From a virus (Duplodnaviria; Heunggongvirae; Uroviricota; Caudoviricetes): a stretch of DNA of 20,209 nt. Below, one piece after another: positions 4,653 to 11,380 of the stretch. Position numbers and translations under genes: made by a program. The stretch lies in IMG/VR virus record IMGVR_UViG_2681813263_000005; one strand, written 5' to 3'. Every line of letters begins with the position of its first letter. Position 1 is the first letter of the stretch. The notes below the pieces were generated by a model. It was not told the origin of the DNA. It saw nothing but the letters and a program-made list of their open reading frames with translations, and made no database searches.

Positions 4653-5362
4653 CAGGTGATCCCCCTGTTCGTGGCGCTTCGTCTGTCAGCGTCTGACGGT
4701 TGTGTCACCGACGCCGTAACTGGCTGCGTTTTAACCGATGCGGCCCCTTTTGCTTTATCGTTGTCCGTGGGAGACGACTTATCCGTACTTCCCACTGACA
4801 CCTCTCCTGTATTCATTACGGTCTGAAATACCGCAGTAACCGTCAGTAAGGTCGGACCATTATTACTTCGCATTCGGTAGTCATATTTCACAAGGTCGCA
4901 GGATGTCCATGTCTTGTCCGGCGTCTCAATATCGTAGAGTCCTGCCGTGGTACGCATCCTTTCAAGCGTTTCCAGCACATTCGTCCGCGAGGTGGTGGAA
5001 AAATTTGTCAGGTTCGGGACGGATCCGGAAAAGGCCGTCCACCCCTCTACAGTGAAAGTCACATGCAGTTCCGGCGATCTCTGGATTTTATTAAAGGTGG
5101 TATAAGCCCCCTGCTCCACGGGGACGGTGGAAACAGAAGCCTCCGCGCCCACCTCAACGACAACAAAAGAATCCGGGGAGAAAGGTTTGCCACCCTTCTG
5201 ATGGGCACCTGCCGGATCATTCCGTGCGTAATAAATACCGAATGACGGTGCCAGTACACTGTTAATGAGTCCCAGGACACCGCCGCCACGAACTGCACTC
5301 AGTACGTTACTTTCACTGAGCGAAAAGTTATTCAGGGAAATATTATCGAAAGAAAAACTCAT
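4652..5362 (-). CDS. Hypothetical tail protein (post-tape-measure slot)
   Basis: 236-aa ORF whose ATG overlaps the tape measure stop (ATGA); Ser/Thr-rich C-terminus. Function by position only. Confidence 0.3.
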
Positions 5363-7380
5363 CCTGTTACCCCGCTGGAATAAACCGACACGAGCGCCGA
5401 ATTCGTGATACGCCGACGTGCGTCATCGGTAATACCCTTCACATTGTCCGACGTTGTGGTGACATTCAGTGTCCCGATATGCGTGGTTTCCGTTACGGTG
5501 GACTGCCATACAGGCGCAGGATGGCGCGACCGTATGGCCATTGCCGCACCCGGATAAGGCAGGTTCGCCAGCACCCGCGGAATATAGTTGCGGGTCTCCT
5601 CCGGAGCAGCAGCCAGTCCCTTACGCTGAACATTTCCCTCTCCCCAGTTATATGCCGCCAGAGCCTTAGCCAGATCGCCATGAAAAAAACGTATCAGGCC
5701 ACCAAGTTTTCTCGCGGCGGCATCAGCGGCTTTTTCGGGATCAAAGGCATCGTTCCCCCTCAGACCAAATTCCCTGGCCGTCTTCGGCATGAACTGAAAC
5801 AGTCCCATCGCACCAGCAGGTGAGACGGCAAACTGATTACCACGGGATTCGGTGATCGCAACGCTGCGCAGCAGTCCGGGCGGCAGGTTATATTTTTCCT
5901 CCAGTTGAGACAGTTTCGGTTGCAGCCAGCCTAACAGGGCTTCCCCGGTCTTCGTCGGTCGCTGGCGGTTTTGCATGGCATTACCGAGTTTTTCCTGCGT
6001 CGCACGCATACCCTGTAGCCAGGATTCACCGAAGGCTGCTTCCCTCCCGGTTGCCTGAGAAGCCTGAGTATCCAGCATGCCCTGCTGCCATACTGTGGGT
6101 GATTGTGCCCGGGTGATGTTGCCAGGCTTTTCTCCGGCATCCAGTTTTGTCTGATACGTCTCCATCTCTTTCTTATTGAAAAAGAAAGTCCCGTCTGAAG
6201 CCCAGAAAAAACCATGTGAATCCAGCCAGTCCTTATTTTCCCTGCCAACAATGGATGTCAGTAATCCGTCAACAACCGGGTAAAGCGCCGTTATCGCAAA
6301 AAGAAGGCCTCCGGGGCCACTGAGGGCTTTTGTCAGCCCCCGCACCCATGACGCCACTTTCAGCCCGATCAGCGTAATAATGACATTCTGCCAGCCCCCC
6401 AGTTCTCCGGCAGCCTTATTCGCCAGGGAGGCCACTGACTCAACGTCATTCAGAAATGTGGTGATAAACCTGTTCACTTCCTCCGGATGTTGCTGCATCC
6501 AGTCACCGAGTGTCTCCAGCCAGTGGCTGAGCTTCAGCGCGTACGGCATCAACGCGGTGCTAATCGTCATCCCGATGCCGGACCAGGTCTGATCGAGCTC
6601 AACAAGCTCTTTTCGTAGCTTACGGGCCAGCGCTATACGCCCCGGCGTAACCTGCGAACGGGAAGTAAATTCGTCCACATCTTTCAGCGCATGACCGGAG
6701 CCAAGAAACTGCTGTCCGGCATAACTGAAGCCCAGCGCGTTGCCGTAGGCAGTTTGTTCGGACTTTGTCAGTCGCGGAAAAATAACCGCCAGCTTGCGCA
6801 TGATGGCTTCAGTGCTGTCAGTATTTAAATCAACACTAATGCCCGCCCTGGCTGCAACCTGAAACAAATCCTGTAACACAGGATCAAAGGACCTTCCGGC
6901 TCTGAAGGCCGCTTTTGCATTTGCAAGCCGGGAAAATGCCCCAGACATTTCCCCTTCATCAACATTATTTGCCCGCGCAGCCCGTAACCATCCGTCCAGA
7001 TTTCTGGCCTTCATGCCAAAAGCATCAGATTCCACGGACAGACGGTTCAGATCACGGGCAAAACCTGTTACCAGGTTCTTCAGCCCCCCCAGCGTCAGAC
7101 TGACACCCGCAAGAGCCAGAATCTCGCTACGGATCCCTGAAAAAAAACGGGACGCCCGTTTCCCGGCATCTTCCATTCGACGGGCCGTTTTATCAGCATC
7201 TTTTCCGGTTTTTTCCAGTGATTCACTGGTTTTCTTCTGTCCCTGACTGAATGTGTCAGCGACACCTTCCATCACCGTCGTGAGCCGGTTAAGGGCAGCA
7301 TGTACTGCCTGTTCCCCGGCAGTAAAGTCCCTGTCATCAATCCCGAGGGACAGAACAAGCTCATCAAGTACCTGCGCCAT
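5359..7380 (-). CDS. Tail tape measure protein with C-terminal lytic transglycosylase (SLT) domain
   Basis: 673-aa ORF following the sheath-tube-chaperone genes. N-terminal region is rich in charged residues and Ala (helix-like composition); hydrophobic segment around residues 330-380. C-terminal block ...AITESRGNQFAVSPAGAMGLFQFMPKTA...AYNWGEGNV matches the SLT catalytic region, with the probable catalytic Glu in TES. SD AGGAG lies 8 nt upstream of the ATG. Confidence 0.8.
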   Translation of the reverse strand: MAQVLDELVLSLGIDDRDFTAGEQAVHAALNRLTTVMEGVADTFSQGQKKTSESLEKTGKDADKTARRMEDAGKRASRFFSGIRSEILALAGVSLTLGGLKNLVTGFARDLNRLSVESDAFGMKARNLDGWLRAARANNVDEGEMSGAFSRLANAKAAFRAGRSFDPVLQDLFQVAARAGISVDLNTDSTEAIMRKLAVIFPRLTKSEQTAYGNALGFSYAGQQFLGSGHALKDVDEFTSRSQVTPGRIALARKLRKELVELDQTWSGIGMTISTALMPYALKLSHWLETLGDWMQQHPEEVNRFITTFLNDVESVASLANKAAGELGGWQNVIITLIGLKVASWVRGLTKALSGPGGLLFAITALYPVVDGLLTSIVGRENKDWLDSHGFFWASDGTFFFNKKEMETYQTKLDAGEKPGNITRAQSPTVWQQGMLDTQASQATGREAAFGESWLQGMRATQEKLGNAMQNRQRPTKTGEALLGWLQPKLSQLEEKYNLPPGLLRSVAITESRGNQFAVSPAGAMGLFQFMPKTAREFGLRGNDAFDPEKAADAAARKLGGLIRFFHGDLAKALAAYNWGEGNVQRKGLAAAPEETRNYIPRVLANLPYPGAAMAIRSRHPAPVWQSTVTETTHIGTLNVTTTSDNVKGITDDARRRITNSALVSVYSSGVTG

Positions 7381-7992
7381 TTCTGTTCTCCTGTATCACC
7401 TGTTCGTTATGGGCATCCACATGAATTATTTCCAGCAGATCCCATAAGTCCTGCACACCAAGGACAGAATCCAGTTCAGCTTTTGAAGCCTTACCGGAGG
7501 AGATAACGGTCGCAATGGTACGGGGAACATTAACGTAATCCACCACCCCGAACGGTCTGTCGGGGTCGAGATAACGCGGGGGGATATCTAGCTGACGACG
7601 GTAGCGAAAAAATCCACATGCAGCTTAAAGACCTCCGCACGCAGATTAAGACGGGTAATGATTTCTTCAATATCCTCTTCAACAAGCGGTCTCCGGATGC
7701 TGCGTTTTTTCGGATCGGGAACAAACTGCACACAGTCCATCATTTCATCCATCAACGGACGCGCCTCATCAGGCGGAATTTTCGATAATGCTTTCAGCCC
7801 TTCAAGGGCAAGCGCAGCCATCCCCAGACTACGAACATCATCCGGTAACTCCACGCCACCACGCCCCATTGCCATAATGGCACGCATCGCCCACCATTCC
7901 GCCTGTGAGGCAGACATTTCGGTAAGATGAAATACCTTGCCCTTATCCCGTCCCTGACCTTCAATAGTGATAAATTTCTCTTTACGGGCCAT
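7364..7992 (-). CDS. Tail assembly chaperone, predicted -1 frameshift fusion product
   Basis: Hand translation: the -1 frame is open from the slippery site T_TTT_TTC (7612..7606) through the in-frame stop down to a stop at 7364, adding about 82 aa (FRYRRQLDIPPRYLDPDRPFGVVDYVNVPRT...). Same arrangement as lambda G/GT and P2 E/E'. Confidence 0.45.
7588..7992 (-). CDS. Tail assembly chaperone (short, in-frame product)
   Basis: 134-aa ORF between the tail tube and tape measure genes. Ends ...HVDFFATVVS with TAG at 7590..7588. Contains a slippery heptamer near its 3' end. Confidence 0.6.
   Translation of the reverse strand: MARKEKFITIEGQGRDKGKVFHLTEMSASQAEWWAMRAIMAMGRGGVELPDDVRSLGMAALALEGLKALSKIPPDEARPLMDEMMDCVQFVPDPKKRSIRRPLVEEDIEEIITRLNLRAEVFKLHVDFFATVVS
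7606..7612 (-). promoter_or_regulatory. Candidate -1 programmed ribosomal frameshift slippery heptamer (U UUU UUC)
   Basis: Minus-strand sequence GAT TTT TTC encodes D-F-F of the chaperone; the heptamer fits the X_XXY_YYZ rule and the -1 frame continues open past the zero-frame stop. Confidence 0.45.
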
Positions 7993-8438
7993 CAGTTAAA
8001 AACCTCCGGAGTAATGGTTTCCCACTCAATAACCGCCTGCCCTGGCTGCAACGTACGAGCTGCATCAGGCAGCGCTTTCCATTGTTTGAGTACGCCATTC
8101 ACGCAGGTATATTTACGGCCAATCGCCGGAAGCAGGACGACAGCGTTACAACGGAATACAGCCCGACTGGCCCGGGATGTGGTTGACCAGGTATCAAAAA
8201 TATCCCGGCTGGGGGAATCCGGCATGATATGAAACGTCTGGATAATGTTGCTGTACACAAATCCCGCGGACAGTTTACCGTCAATACCGCGGGCAGTTTC
8301 CGCCAGTACCAGTGGATCGGTGCCATAAACGTTATCTGTTGCAAATCCCTGAAGTCGTACGCCGGAGGGATACAGATTATTCACTGTCAGCGTGATAATG
8401 GCATCCGCCGCAGTGATGGTGTTGTTGTTACCCGACAT
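7992..8438 (-). CDS. Tail tube protein
   Basis: 148-aa ORF immediately downstream of the sheath gene and upstream of the chaperone, the canonical tube position and size. Confidence 0.6.
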   Translation of the reverse strand: MSGNNNTITAADAIITLTVNNLYPSGVRLQGFATDNVYGTDPLVLAETARGIDGKLSAGFVYSNIIQTFHIMPDSPSRDIFDTWSTTSRASRAVFRCNAVVLLPAIGRKYTCVNGVLKQWKALPDAARTLQPGQAVIEWETITPEVFN

Positions 8439-9923
8439 TTACTGGACCTCCGTGGATGCAATAACAAGTTTCTGGATACTACCGCCGTCACAGTACCAGA
8501 GCGTACAGGACGGACTGCTACGGGTTGCCCGCAAAGAGGGAAGCATATCGCCGATATACAGGTAATAGCCGGTGGCAAACAACGTTGAAGAAACATCTGC
8601 CCCCACAACATTGTTAATCTGTTTCTTCTGCGCCTCCGTCAGTGTCACCCCTTCACGGATCCCTCCCCAGCGTTTGTACTGCTGGATAACGTCACTCATT
8701 GACGCTGCAACCAGCGCCCGCCCTTCATTGTTGTAGGGGATCGTCTGGTTTGACTTGAATAACGCGATCACCGCCCCCTGCAAACTGGCATTCAGCCAGA
8801 TTTGCCCGCAGAAACTGTCCAGCCATTTAAAATCACCGGTAATAGTGCCATCCGCCCAGTAATCTTCCACCACACTGTTTTCCGCATATTTTCCGTAGAA
8901 ATTGTAACCTGCGGCGATCAGCGCATCATAATCGCTGCCACTGGTAACATCAGCGGCCAGCCCCTCATACTCGCGGAACTTGAATGATACACGCCCCTCT
9001 GGTCGGACAAAATCAAGGCACGCTGCATACCCCAGTACCGCTGCAGCCCGGTTACCATCAGTCGCGAAAACAGGTACAACAGAGCTGTAGTTATTGACAG
9101 CAATTATCTGGTAAGCGATGTGTTCAGTACTGCCTTTTACTCTGGCGTTGCCGCTGGTTGTCCATGCCACATAAAAGTAACGCTTGCCCTGCCCGTTTGC
9201 CCATGCAGAAAACGCCAGGTGTTGCTCGTCAGTGACCTCAGATACCGTGGAAAAACCCGCCCATTGCTGGGAAGCGGCCTTAATGGCTGCCATTGTGTCA
9301 GGGACATCAGATACAGGCGCGCCCCGGGATATCACCGCACCGGTGTTACTGGTCATCTTCAGGAGTTCTGCTGCCGATCCACTGCCGAACGTTATCGTGG
9401 TACTCCCGGGTTTCGCCCCGGCGACAGTAATGACAAAAGCATTCTGTGTGGTATCGAATACCACTGTAGCCACTGCTGCGGTCAGCGCTGTCTGTAGTGC
9501 CGTTGCAGCAGCGGCGAAGCTGGCGACACCGTTAAAATTCACTTCAATGCTGACGCTTTTCCCGTTAATACTCAGCATCAGCGTGCCGGAAAGTTTTTGT
9601 AGCTGTTCAACAGTCGCGCCCTTAAACGAACCGCTACGTAACCAGGCCGCCGATGGGGCAGGACTGAAACGGGAAAACAACAATTGCCCCGGCGTCCTGG
9701 TGGCATTTTTGAAGCCCTGGAAATAAAGCTGAGCGCGTGCGTACTCATCGGATAATGCACCAAAATACGCGGCCACATCATCCGGAGAGGAAAACGGAAC
9801 CACAGTGCCGACCGGAAGTAACGGATTACTGGTCAACAGCAGGCCGTTAAGATCGACGGCATTACCCGCCACAGCCAGCACACCGGGATTTATCTGTACA
9901 TCTTTACTGAGTGGAATTGGCAT
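8439..9923 (-). CDS. Tail sheath protein (DUF3383-like)
   Basis: 494-aa ORF; size and position ahead of the tube, chaperone and tape measure genes. Sequence resembles sheath proteins of the DUF3383 type (recollection). Confidence 0.7.
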
Positions 9924-10449: not shown

Positions 10450-10799
10450 ACAATAACCCTCGTCCAGTCAGGCCAGATTTCCGGTACCTCAATCACCAGC
10501 CACGTTTCATCGCCAATAACAAATTTATCGCCTCCCTGTTGCCGGGCACGGTTAAGCCCGCACCAGTTACCATCGGTATACAATGTGGCGAAAACTCCCT
10601 GCTGGTTAAGATTATCAAGATGACGTAAATCAGCCTGGGTGACAGCCTGCTTTTGCACCCTGACAGAAACCGGATCTTCATACTCAGGTACGCGGGAATA
10701 ATCTGCCTGCTGTGTACTCCCGCGGGAACGATAAACCAGCGCGTCTGTAAAGGGATTTACCCGACGTACTGCGCCGGAAACAATACCGTGAAAGTTCAT
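10434..10799 (-). CDS. Hypothetical head-tail joining protein
   Basis: 121-aa ORF; ATGA overlap with the upstream gene. Lies within the capsid-to-sheath neck gene block. Confidence 0.3.
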   Translation of the reverse strand: MNFHGIVSGAVRRVNPFTDALVYRSRGSTQQADYSRVPEYEDPVSVRVQKQAVTQADLRHLDNLNQQGVFATLYTDGNWCGLNRARQQGGDKFVIGDETWLVIEVPEIWPDWTRVIVCLQV

Positions 10800-11380
10800 T
10801 TTTTGCCCCCGTCTACAGAATAATCAACGCTGTCCATCATATGTCCGGTTTCAATAAGCGGGTTGTTAAAACCCTTTTGCCGGGCAGTGGATGCAGCGTT
10901 GGGCGGACTTTCCCAGTCGCGAACAGACATCTGCAACTGCCCTTTGATATGTTCTCCCATACACACCAGAGCGGTCGCAGTATCAAAATCATTCGCCCGT
11001 AATAAGGTCGCCATTTTTTCGCCCCATTCGGGACTTTTATGTTCGATCATCTTACGGAAGAACGGACGGGGGGGAATGGTGACCGTGTGCTCAGGAATAA
11101 CCACATCCTGAACAAAATTCCCTTTACCGGCTTTGACAAAGCGGTGCCCGGTTTCTCCCGTTTTTTCGTTATAGCGAAAGTGGAGCGTCTGCTCACGGGC
11201 GGGTATGACCGCTCTTCCACCAAACTCCTGAACTGCGGCAATATAAGCCACTGACGTACCGTCAGGGTAAGTTGCTCCCTCAAGAAAACCCACTTTGAGT
11301 TTTTTACCCAATGAAAGGTTCGCGGCAACCTGTTTCAGCTTCTGCCGGAACTGTTTGCCACCTGTGACTTTATTTACCAT
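10796..11380 (-). CDS. Hypothetical neck / tail-completion-like protein
   Basis: 194-aa ORF in the neck gene block, overlapping its neighbours. No decisive motif. Confidence 0.3.

Follow-up and report, generated by a model that had tools for sequence, protein, structure and literature searches.

A predicted −1 ribosomal frameshift in an Escherichia coli prophage's tail assembly chaperone gene

The tail module and its overlapping reading frames

The DNA analyzed here (20,209 nt, the whole of which we refer to as the window) is a tailed-phage sequence, IMG/VR record IMGVR_UViG_2681813263_000005, that corresponds to an E. coli prophage. All of the features described below lie on its minus strand, where a contractile-tail module is laid out in the order sheath, tube, chaperone, extension, and tape measure, which is the position occupied by chaperone genes of the G/GT type. 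The sheath gene (8439..9923; DUF3383, phrog_205) is upstream of the tail tube gene (7992..8438, 148 aa; PF22764 E217_Gp32, E = 2e-17; phrog_1964), and the latter lies immediately upstream of the gene for a tail assembly chaperone (7588..7992), a short, G-like product of 134 aa. In zero-frame translation, the chaperone runs from an ATG at 7992..7990, which shares bases with the tube gene stop (TGATG) and has a strong Shine-Dalgarno sequence (−10.2 kcal/mol), to a TAG at 7590..7588, with the C-terminal end ...HVDFFATVVS. The tape-measure gene (5359..7380, 673 aa) starts with an ATG at 7380..7378, and its product has a C-terminal SLT lytic transglycosylase domain (PF01464, E = 8e-26; phrog_2013, phrog_2276).

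A first-pass annotation, made from the letters and their open reading frames, had named the gene a tail assembly chaperone, and this identity is supported both by its tube and tape-measure neighbors and by a PHROG profile search, in which residues 1–131 of the 134 matched phrog_1932 (“tail assembly chaperone”) at E = 3e-59. Neither the chaperone nor its extension (see below) matched any Pfam family at E ≤ 0.01, including the Phage_TAC_* and Phage_P2_GpE families, or any NCBIfam family at E ≤ 1, and a PDB sequence search gave no match to either one. An AlphaFold2 model of the chaperone, for which 29 close homologues were used, had low confidence (pLDDT 58); with this model, Foldseek returned nothing from the PDB at E ≤ 0.001, its BFVD matches at E ≤ 1e-5 were sequence relatives, and several proteins named tail assembly chaperone were among the weaker BFVD matches (E 0.01–0.1). 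Searches of phage DNA were nearly empty, with no match by megablast and a sole blastn match of 127 nt to Pantoea phage PA-1, and thus protein-level searches were needed.

Within the chaperone gene, the slippery heptamer T_TTT_TTC occupies 7606..7612. The zero-frame codons GAT (7614–7612), TTT (7611–7609), and TTC (7608–7606) place it in the X_XXY_YYZ phase, and the TAG of the chaperone comes 22 nt past it. Counted from the heptamer, the −1 frame forms an extension of 82 codons (7364..7612) that translates, from 7612, as FFRYRRQLDIPP...NRNGAGT, passes through the zero-frame TAG, and ends with a TGA at 7366..7364, overlapping the start of the tape-measure gene by 17 nt. The last 60 residues of this extension (residues 22–81), a T-like domain, match phrog_3976 (E = 6e-32). 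The predicted trans-frame product would have 127 + 82 = 209 aa, with residues 1–129 read in frame 0 and followed by RYRRQ... in frame −1; the whole recoded gene would span 7364..7992, and this predicted product can be aligned to homologues without a break at the junction. The first-pass annotation had anticipated the slippery site, by hand translation an open −1 frame of about 82 residues to a stop at 7364, an overlap with the tape-measure start at 7380, and a fusion of roughly 210 aa; its coordinates for the heptamer are exact to the base, and re-translation agrees with the rest.

Conservation of the slip site and the −1 frame

An in-phase heptamer is not rare on its own. There are 31 X_XXY_YYZ sequences in phase within the 24 minus-strand genes of the window (6477 codons); the remaining 30 are followed by just 2–43 open codons in the −1 frame, and none adjoins a gene end. 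Similarly, the run of 22 stop-free codons from the heptamer to the first GTG is only mildly unlikely in a single sequence. The significance of the site rests on its conservation across homologues, and we compared 115 related loci from many host genera, spanning 34–100% protein identity.

An in-phase X_XXY_YYZ occurs at the homologous site in 111 of the 115 loci, in each case with the sequence TTTTTTN or GGGTTTT and at the corresponding [D/G]F residues; what remains at the other four loci (two lineages) is a T_TTT tetramer. Past the zero-frame stop, the −1 frame continues open for 55 codons or more in 114/115 loci. When the comparison is reduced to 35 non-redundant lineages, a stop falls within the 25 codons after the site in 34 of them in frame 0 and in 28 in frame +1, but in none in frame −1. 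Interruption of the −1 frame in close homologues had been named beforehand as an observation that would count against a frameshift, and alignment of homologous chaperones as the way to look for it; in that alignment, both the heptamer and the open frame are kept down to ~34% identity. One IMG/VR contig (L013) has an apparently broken −1 frame, but we do not count it against the frameshift, since its differences from the window are three indels in homopolymers, which are typical of sequencing error.

The pattern of substitution is also informative at the level of single bases. Among 84 unique sequences, the two wobble bases inside the T-run are T in 80/84 and 84/84, corresponding to an entropy of 0–0.28 bit, versus 1.0–1.9 bit at neighboring wobble sites. 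Just past the heptamer, conservation tracks the codons of the −1 frame (CGN CGN, giving RR), and in this frame the linker has a dN/dS of 0.44 and the domain one of 0.28. As these alignments show, coding selection in the −1 frame begins directly at the slip site. Further, many lineages have a −1-frame TGA directly 5′ of the heptamer, so that the usable overlap is exactly 22 nt and the site of the shift is fixed.

One recoded gene or two genes

Existing gene models divide the locus differently. PGAP and all 16 of the GenBank/RefSeq phage records inspected give separate coding sequences for the two parts, and the fused protein is absent from the best 120 protein matches in public collections. In RefSeq, the second part is a separate hypothetical protein of 60 aa (7364..7546) that we take to be the 3′ portion of the extension. 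If the two were instead independent genes, the 60-aa ORF would initiate at a GTG of its own and the heptamer would be a coincidence. Some relatives do have a plausible internal start, such as an ATG in Aeromonas (Shine-Dalgarno −9.3 kcal/mol) and a GTG in Pantoea PA-1 (−8.1 kcal/mol). However, the candidate GTG codons in the window lack a Shine-Dalgarno sequence (+0.4 and −2.2 kcal/mol, vs. a median of −6.9 for 23 genes of the window), the position of the start is not conserved among lineages, and no ATG, GTG, or TTG precedes the conserved domain in Photorhabdus, Xenorhabdus, Serratia, or phiE131. A search for an internal promoter between the two parts found none. In addition, the 22–25 codons that precede any start contain no stop in 35/35 lineages, this pre-start stretch (the linker above) is under purifying selection in the −1 frame, and homologues with a single in-frame ORF cover both parts. 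We therefore give two independent genes a very small probability. The claim of the first-pass annotation that the 60-aa ORF is just the tail of the extension fits both its lack of initiation signals and its collinearity with the C-terminal part of the single-ORF homologues.

Comparative evidence of this kind makes it very likely, in our judgment, that the locus is one recoded gene rather than two, with the 209-aa form made by a −1 frameshift. Sequence features that characterize G/GT-type loci (Xu, Hendrix & Duda 2004) are found here: a −1 overlap in which the second frame has no initiation signals of its own, an in-phase heptamer within the overlap, and conservation of this arrangement in divergent homologues. 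The chaperone recoding arrangement of tailed phages, to which the locus had initially been assigned, is likewise supported by the gene order, the conserved slip site, and the lack of initiation signals at the 60-aa ORF.

Slippage by the ribosome or by RNA polymerase

The same 209-aa protein would result if RNA polymerase added an extra U on the T6 run, and the two routes cannot be told apart by their product. Documented bacterial sites of transcriptional slippage are runs of about nine or more A or T. At this locus, the run is just 6 nt in the window; it shortens to 5 nt in Aeromonas phage 56 and to 4 nt in phiE131, in the Klebsiella/Raoultella clade, and in Paraburkholderia; the window and several homologues (T4–T5) are thus below the length of the documented sites, and the −1 frame is still conserved in the homologues with the shorter runs. 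Those shorter sites are, moreover, valid in-phase ribosomal motifs (G_GGT_TTT or a U_UU.U tetramer), and the site is always in the ribosomal slip phase, which is irrelevant to a polymerase. What speaks for the polymerase is that conservation falls on a homopolymer run (T6 in the window, T7 in some relatives), and that U7 runs are scarcer than expected in each of the three frames of E. coli genes, possibly as a result of slippage (PMC4066793). On balance, we consider transcriptional slippage improbable as the source of the long form and infer that the slip is ribosomal. A minor possibility is that polymerase slippage on the T6 run contributes part of the long form.

No stimulatory element was found around the heptamer. 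U_UU.U_UU.C itself is one of a class of motifs measured as efficient in E. coli (PMC4066793). In dnaX and at IS3/IS911-type sites, tandem −1 slippage on X_XXY_YYZ takes place in bacteria as we propose here; however, those sites need a Shine-Dalgarno-like element 6–17 nt upstream and/or a downstream hairpin or pseudoknot, and neither is conserved at the prophage site, which thus lies outside the stimulator-dependent (dnaX, IS3) class. Downstream of the heptamer, folding of the window sequence was no better than that of shuffles (z-scores −0.43 and +0.23), the mean z over 35 lineages was −0.39, with values below −2 in four lineages only, and an Rfam search gave no match. A candidate upstream stimulator, the Shine-Dalgarno-like GGAGG at 7636..7632, was rejected because 19 nt separate it from the heptamer and because it lacks conservation (its GAG/GAA wobble varies). 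Given the lack of a stimulator, the efficiency of the slip is probably low, at a few per cent.

Comparison with lambda, P2, and other tailed phages

One parallel is lambda gpG/gpGT (Levin 1993; Xu, Hendrix & Duda 2004, 2013, 2014), which likewise consists of two overlapping ORFs flanked by the genes for the major tail protein and the tape measure, with the second ORF (T) in the −1 frame and without a start of its own. The lambda products are made at a G:GT ratio of about 30:1 (reviewed in PMC5009743), and a low yield of the long form is similarly expected here. Lambda, however, is a siphovirus that slips at G_GGA_AAG, whereas the prophage has a contractile tail and T_TTT_TTC, and no sequence similarity was detected between the two (no Pfam tail-chaperone family was matched). 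The roles of the prophage domains would be assigned by likeness of arrangement.

Phage P2 is another parallel, a contractile-tail phage of E. coli with a −1 shift at T6N. According to PMC3091744, gpE/gpE+E′ of P2 (Christie 2002) shifts at TTTTTTG without a downstream structure, and in this the analogy to P2 E/E′ drawn in the first-pass annotation holds. TTTTTTG is also the variant in several relatives of the prophage, which itself has TTTTTTC. The products differ in size (91/142 aa in P2 vs. 134/209 aa in the prophage), Pfam and PHROG searches detect no similarity between them, and the P2 frameshift has been verified experimentally, whereas that of the prophage is read from sequence. A conserved stimulatory RNA structure is absent from the prophage family, as it is from lambda G/GT and P2 E/E+E′. 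Tail chaperone loci with a GTTTTT motif were described in Pakpunavirus/Vandenendeviridae and Andersonviridae, where a frameshift was inferred from stop-free −1 frames in many genomes and where the downstream ORF is routinely mis-annotated as hypothetical (PMC12846349); these are other phage lineages, likened to the prophage by arrangement.

In our reading, the majority of ribosomes would translate 7992..7588 and halt at the TAG, releasing the 134-aa chaperone. A minority would slip at GAU_UUU_UUC, where two tRNA-Phe on UUU and UUC would re-pair one base upstream on UUU_UUU, and would then read the −1 frame to the TGA at 7364, producing a 209-aa protein composed of the shared N-terminal 129 residues and an 80-residue C-terminal domain. 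If the analogy with lambda gpG/gpGT and P2 gpE/gpE+E′ extends to function, the N-terminal part found in both forms would serve to coat the tape-measure protein (5359..7380). Recruitment of the tube protein (7992..8438) would fall to the rare C-terminal domain, and the virion would retain neither form.

The arrangement could also be a relic inherited from functional phages, in a prophage copy no longer expressed or needed. The element is present in only 9/5,426 complete E. coli genomes, and a neighboring structural gene is flagged “frameshifted” in one copy. The 24 minus-strand ORFs of the window that we treated as genes nevertheless run nearly end to end without large gaps, and the region of chaperone, extension, and tape measure is 100% identical in seven genomes and 99.8% identical in an eighth. 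We see only the slightest chance that the locus is a relic, and this would bear on the activity of the copy rather than on the nature of the signal.

Consequences for annotation

The principle of the tail chaperone frameshift has been textbook knowledge since 1993–2004 and gains nothing from this gene, which is an unannotated further case of a well-known phenomenon. Its use lies mainly in annotation. The extension is entered as a free-standing “hypothetical protein” both in RefSeq and in the 16 phage records inspected, and the chaperone is often hypothetical too. Treating the two as one recoded gene would correct how the locus is modeled in a lineage of prophages and phages whose hosts belong to many genera (Escherichia, Salmonella, Serratia, Photorhabdus, Xenorhabdus, Pantoea, Enterobacter, Klebsiella, Aeromonas, Vibrio, Pseudomonas, Acinetobacter, Burkholderia, and others), including the Acinetobacter Obolenskvirus phages used in therapy work.

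Distant relatives with and without an annotated frameshift

A distant homologue has already been annotated in this way. Burkholderia phage BcepB1A (GenBank AY616033.2) encodes gp15 E and gp15′ E′ (“pre-tape measure frameshift protein”), with an identical T_TTT_TTC in the same phase (AGT_TTT_TTC) and with E′ given by the depositors as a frameshift product, an annotation rather than an experiment. The first residue of E′ is already part of its alignment to the window extension (pairwise E = 9e-11; database-wide tblastn E = 9e-4). E scores 22 bits against the chaperone profile, and the N-terminal domains are barely similar. In BcepB1A, the zero frame runs for about 34 codons past the slip site, versus five in the prophage.

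In other relatives, the two parts are joined in a single frame. The predicted fusion matches phrog_18181 in one stretch across the junction (residues 56–198), and it also aligns across the junction with single in-frame ORFs, namely gp47 of Burkholderia phage Bcep781 and ORF 22 of Ralstonia phage Bakoly (E = 4e-15 for the latter). Bcep781 gp47 and gp46 and Bakoly ORFs 22 and 21 are collinear with and homologous to both parts of the fusion, but they do without a frameshift. One in-frame ORF (170–186 aa) that lacks a T-run at the junction encodes the long form, and it is adjoined by a separate gene of 136 aa whose homology is to the N-terminal part alone. Read from these sequences, Bcep781 and Bakoly have a two-gene solution in place of recoding. 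In G/GT-type systems, a short and a long protein are produced in unequal amounts and tail assembly requires both; that relatives without the slip site encode the two forms as two genes lends indirect support to the prediction that both would be made and needed here.

With somewhat less than even confidence, we suggest that this chaperone family may make its short and long forms in three interchangeable ways: by a heptamer, by a tetramer, or from two genes. The window and most relatives have the full heptamer without a stimulator. Others have a bare T_TTT, which in Paraburkholderia is followed by a strong GC hairpin and in Klebsiella/Raoultella has no evident stimulator. The Bcep781 and Bakoly groups have an in-frame long-form gene and a separate short-form gene. 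Such a three-way family, if real, would amount to a natural experiment addressing why a frameshift usually couples the two forms and how strict their ratio must be; the relatives with two genes in place of a frameshift are, in themselves, a modest evolutionary curiosity.

Architecture of the probably recoded chaperone gene

The chaperone ORF runs on the minus strand from ATG 7992 to TAG 7590..7588, encodes 134 aa ending (by translation) in KLHVDFFATVVS, and matches PHROG family phrog_1932, "tail assembly chaperone", in a profile search (E 3e-59). It lies downstream of genes for the tail sheath (8439..9923, DUF3383/phrog_205) and tail tube (7992..8438, E217_Gp32-type) and upstream of a minus-strand tape-measure-like gene (5359..7380) with a C-terminal SLT lytic transglycosylase domain. 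Because its last zero-frame codons read GAT (7614-7612) TTT (7611-7609) TTC (7608-7606) GCT ACC GTC GTC AGC TAG, the minus-strand heptamer T_TTT_TTC (7612..7606) is an in-phase X_XXY_YYZ slippery site; the first-pass annotation, which had proposed a programmed -1 frameshift here, placed it correctly to the base, and the codon reading confirms its phase. The open -1 frame of about 82 residues that it described is likewise present, with 82 sense codons from 7612 (FFRYRRQLDIPPRYLDPDRPFGVVDYVNVPRTIATVISSGKASKAELDSVLGVQDLWDLLEIIHVDAHNEQVIQENRNGAGT, by translation) before a TGA at 7366..7364, as is the overlap with the tape-measure start, which amounts to 17 nt at ATG 7380 of that 673-aa gene. Translation also bears out the view that the 60-aa minus-strand entry which the mechanical ORF list gives at 7364..7546 represents the distal stretch of this extension. 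A tandem -1 slip would join frame 0 residues 1-129 to 80 residues of the -1 frame in a 209-aa protein. The extension matches phrog_3976 (unknown function, 67 profile positions; E 6e-32) over its final 60 residues, and the predicted fusion has one continuous match to phrog_18181 (170 profile positions; E 5e-8), residues 56-198, that spans the junction at 129/130. Neither Pfam nor NCBIfam has a model for the chaperone or the extension.

The heptamer taken alone is not beyond chance, and the case rests on comparative data. The window's 24 minus-strand genes contain 31 in-phase X_XXY_YYZ motifs; at the other 30, none of which lies at a gene end, the -1 frame shuts within 2-43 codons. Two T runs in the minus-strand tape-measure gene, T8 (7140..7147) and T7 (5683..5689), form in-phase T_TTT_TTT heptamers, but slippage there would merely truncate the protein, since the -1 frame meets a stop after 6-7 codons.

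Conservation across homologous loci

We compared 115 loci whose chaperones are 34-100% identical to that of the window. Besides the window itself, the set drew on phages and prophages from GenBank, 80 contigs from IMG/VR, and 22 genomes from GTDB. Among the host genera are Escherichia, Salmonella, Serratia, Xenorhabdus, Photorhabdus, Pantoea, Enterobacter, Klebsiella/Raoultella, Edwardsiella, Aeromonas, Vibrio, Pseudomonas, Acinetobacter, Burkholderia/Paraburkholderia, Oxalobacter, and Rhodovarius. Both parts of the proposed signal hold up in these homologues: 111/115 loci have an in-phase TTTTTTC/A/T/G or GGGTTTT at the homologous [D/G]-F position, and in 114/115 the -1 frame is open for at least 55 codons beyond the zero-frame stop. 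Among 35 non-redundant lineages, a stop falls within 25 codons past the site in none for frame -1, in 34 for frame 0, and in 28 for frame +1. The lone locus with a broken -1 frame (L013, IMG/VR UViG_2537561977_000012) has a chaperone 100% identical to that of the window and, at ~935-1000, three downstream homopolymer-type indels relative to the window (C6 to C7, C4 to C5, GGTGG to GTG); the break is thus most likely sequencing error rather than real biology. Individual prophage copies may possibly be dead relics, although such status would leave the nature of the signal unchanged.

Four loci keep just a GCT_TTT_N tetramer. They represent two lineages, Klebsiella/Raoultella (L006 ~1950, L110, L111) and Paraburkholderia bannensis (L114 ~1870), and the open -1 frame is conserved in both. 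The Paraburkholderia site has a strong GC hairpin directly 3' (-24.7 kcal/mol). In the Klebsiella clade no stimulator is evident, and no start codon precedes the conserved domain. Gene order also varies locally. The stop of the -1 extension and the tape-measure gene, which normally adjoin, are separated in Burkholderia phage phiE131 by an inserted HNH homing-endonuclease gene (L003 2114-2605). Klebsiella phage ST15-VIM1phi2.1 carries a Rha-family regulator gene between the tube and chaperone genes (L006 864-1421), and its record has the tape-measure gene annotated as two pieces.

Selection on the slip signal and the -1 frame

We anchored 84 unique sequences on the heptamer. Upstream of it, zero-frame wobble positions have an entropy of 1.0-1.9 bits, and the Val codon directly before GAT uses all four third bases. 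Inside the T run, the wobble base is T in 80/84 at GAT (never GAC) and in 84/84 at TTT (never TTC). The seventh heptamer base is free (C 49, A 11, T 12, G 12), with the zero-frame residue alternating between Phe and Leu. Directly 3', the conserved pattern is that of -1-frame codons, CGN CGN (Arg-Arg), not zero-frame codons, and -1-frame differences fall mostly at third positions (NG86 dN/dS 0.44 in the linker, codons 3-24, and 0.28 in the distal domain). In many lineages (GTT GAT TTT TTC) a -1-frame TGA immediately abuts the heptamer, so that the permitted shift window is exactly 22 nt starting with the heptamer. Transcriptional slippage on the T run would give the same protein product, but is disfavoured, as homologues with runs of only T4-T5 keep the arrangement and the slip site is always in ribosomal phase.

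Initiation of the 60-aa ORF on its own is likewise disfavoured. Its GTG candidates at 7546 and 7543 have anti-Shine-Dalgarno energies of +0.4 and -2.2 kcal/mol, versus a median of -6.9 for 23 window genes (-10.2 at the chaperone start, -7.4 at the tape-measure start), and its start codons are not conserved across lineages. In Photorhabdus, Xenorhabdus, Serratia, and phiE131, and likewise in the Klebsiella clade (read by eye), the first ATG/GTG/TTG lies inside or past the conserved NVP...ELDTVYG...LLEI domain. No promoter-like site was found between the chaperone and the 60-aa ORF.

Homologues of the predicted fused product

A tblastn search of 50,697 phage records with the fusion as query returned one-piece, in-frame matches covering 89-91% of its length in Burkholderia phages Bcep781, Bcep43, and Bcep1 (gp47) and Ralstonia phages Bakoly, Adzire, Simangalove, and Elie. 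Pairwise, the window's LHVDFF/RYRRQLDIP aligns with LHAGFVVGRKPTELP in Bakoly (E 4e-15) and with LHVAFLTDREPLDIP in Bcep781. These long ORFs (170-186 aa) are collinear with the window's predicted fusion and have no T run at the junction (GCG TTC CTG) and no frameshift. Downstream of each lies a separate gene of 136 aa whose homology is confined to the N-terminal part (profile scores 36 and 29 bits): gp47 and gp46 of Bcep781 lie at L118 1222-1734 and 1731-2141, and the Bakoly pair at L119 1195-1755 and 1752-2162. gp47 and gp46 have no similarity to each other detectable by BLAST; each matches the chaperone profile. As the in-frame long gene and the N-terminal-only gene adjoin, these phages appear, from sequence, to make long and short forms from two genes and not from one recoded gene. 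In Burkholderia phage BcepB1A (AY616033.2), gene 15/15' was labelled by its depositors "pre-tape measure frameshift protein" E/E'; the alignment of its E' (FFRERQSVRFP...) with the window extension begins at residue 1 (pairwise E 9e-11), and its slip site, AGT_TTT_TTC (L120 1213-1219), has the same heptamer and phase.

Mechanism and expected efficiency

Tandem -1 ribosomal slippage is the best-supported mechanism, in which two tRNA-Phe molecules would shift from UUU_UUC to U_UUU_UU. According to measurements in E. coli, H_HH.U_UU.Y heptamers, including U_UU.U_UU.C, belong to the efficient class, and among tetramers only A_AA.G outranks U_UU.C and U_UU.U (PMC4066793), which covers the four tetramer-only loci. 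The contractile-tail case proven by experiment in E. coli, P2 E/E+E', shifts on TTTTTTG without downstream structure (PMC3091744). Downstream folding is no better than in shuffles for the window (z -0.43, +0.23) and averages z -0.39 over 35 lineages; the region has no Rfam match, and the window's GGAGG 19 nt 5' of the heptamer is not conserved. Burkholderia/Paraburkholderia and Rhodovarius (L109) lineages, which have a weaker slip motif, account for most of the strong GC hairpins directly 3' of the site; two other loci also have one. Given that no stimulator was found, and by comparison with lambda (G/GT ratio ~30:1) and P2 (2-3-fold more efficient; PMC5009743), we expect a low slip efficiency of a few per cent. 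By analogy with the lambda model (PMC5009743), the N-terminal domain would coat the tape measure, and recruitment of the tube protein would fall to the rare C-terminal domain.

Annotation and genomic context

The first-pass observation is correct, and its reading as an ordinary recoding signal, overlooked by current annotation, is well supported. A -1 frameshifted tail chaperone is of a textbook kind (Levin 1993; Christie 2002; Xu 2004). The distant homologue BcepB1A is already annotated as frameshifted, and a 2025 paper on a different myovirus family argues along the same lines (PMC12846349). The joined product appears neither in the 16 inspected records of close relatives nor among the best 120 protein-database hits, and our literature search found no paper on it for Obolenskvirus or related groups. 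PGAP enters the chaperone and 60-aa ORF as two "hypothetical proteins". The tape-measure protein, with SLT domain PF01464 at residues 493-598 (E 8e-26), bears only the RefSeq name "lytic transglycosylase domain-containing protein".

The window is an E. coli prophage, and an 801-nt test segment is 99.8-100% identical in 9/5,426 complete RefSeq genomes. The tube stop overlaps the chaperone start in TGATG (7990..7994), and overlaps of 1-4 nt recur at several further junctions of the tail module, which suggests translational coupling along the operon. The window's intact 194-aa structural ORF (10796..11380) has a 584-nt homologue in strain CFSAN029787 (L001 5722-6305) that RefSeq flags as a "frameshifted" pseudogene. 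In the same strain (NZ_CP011416.1), the prophage tail-fibre end adjoins an ipaH type III effector E3 ligase gene (L001 18775-18801).
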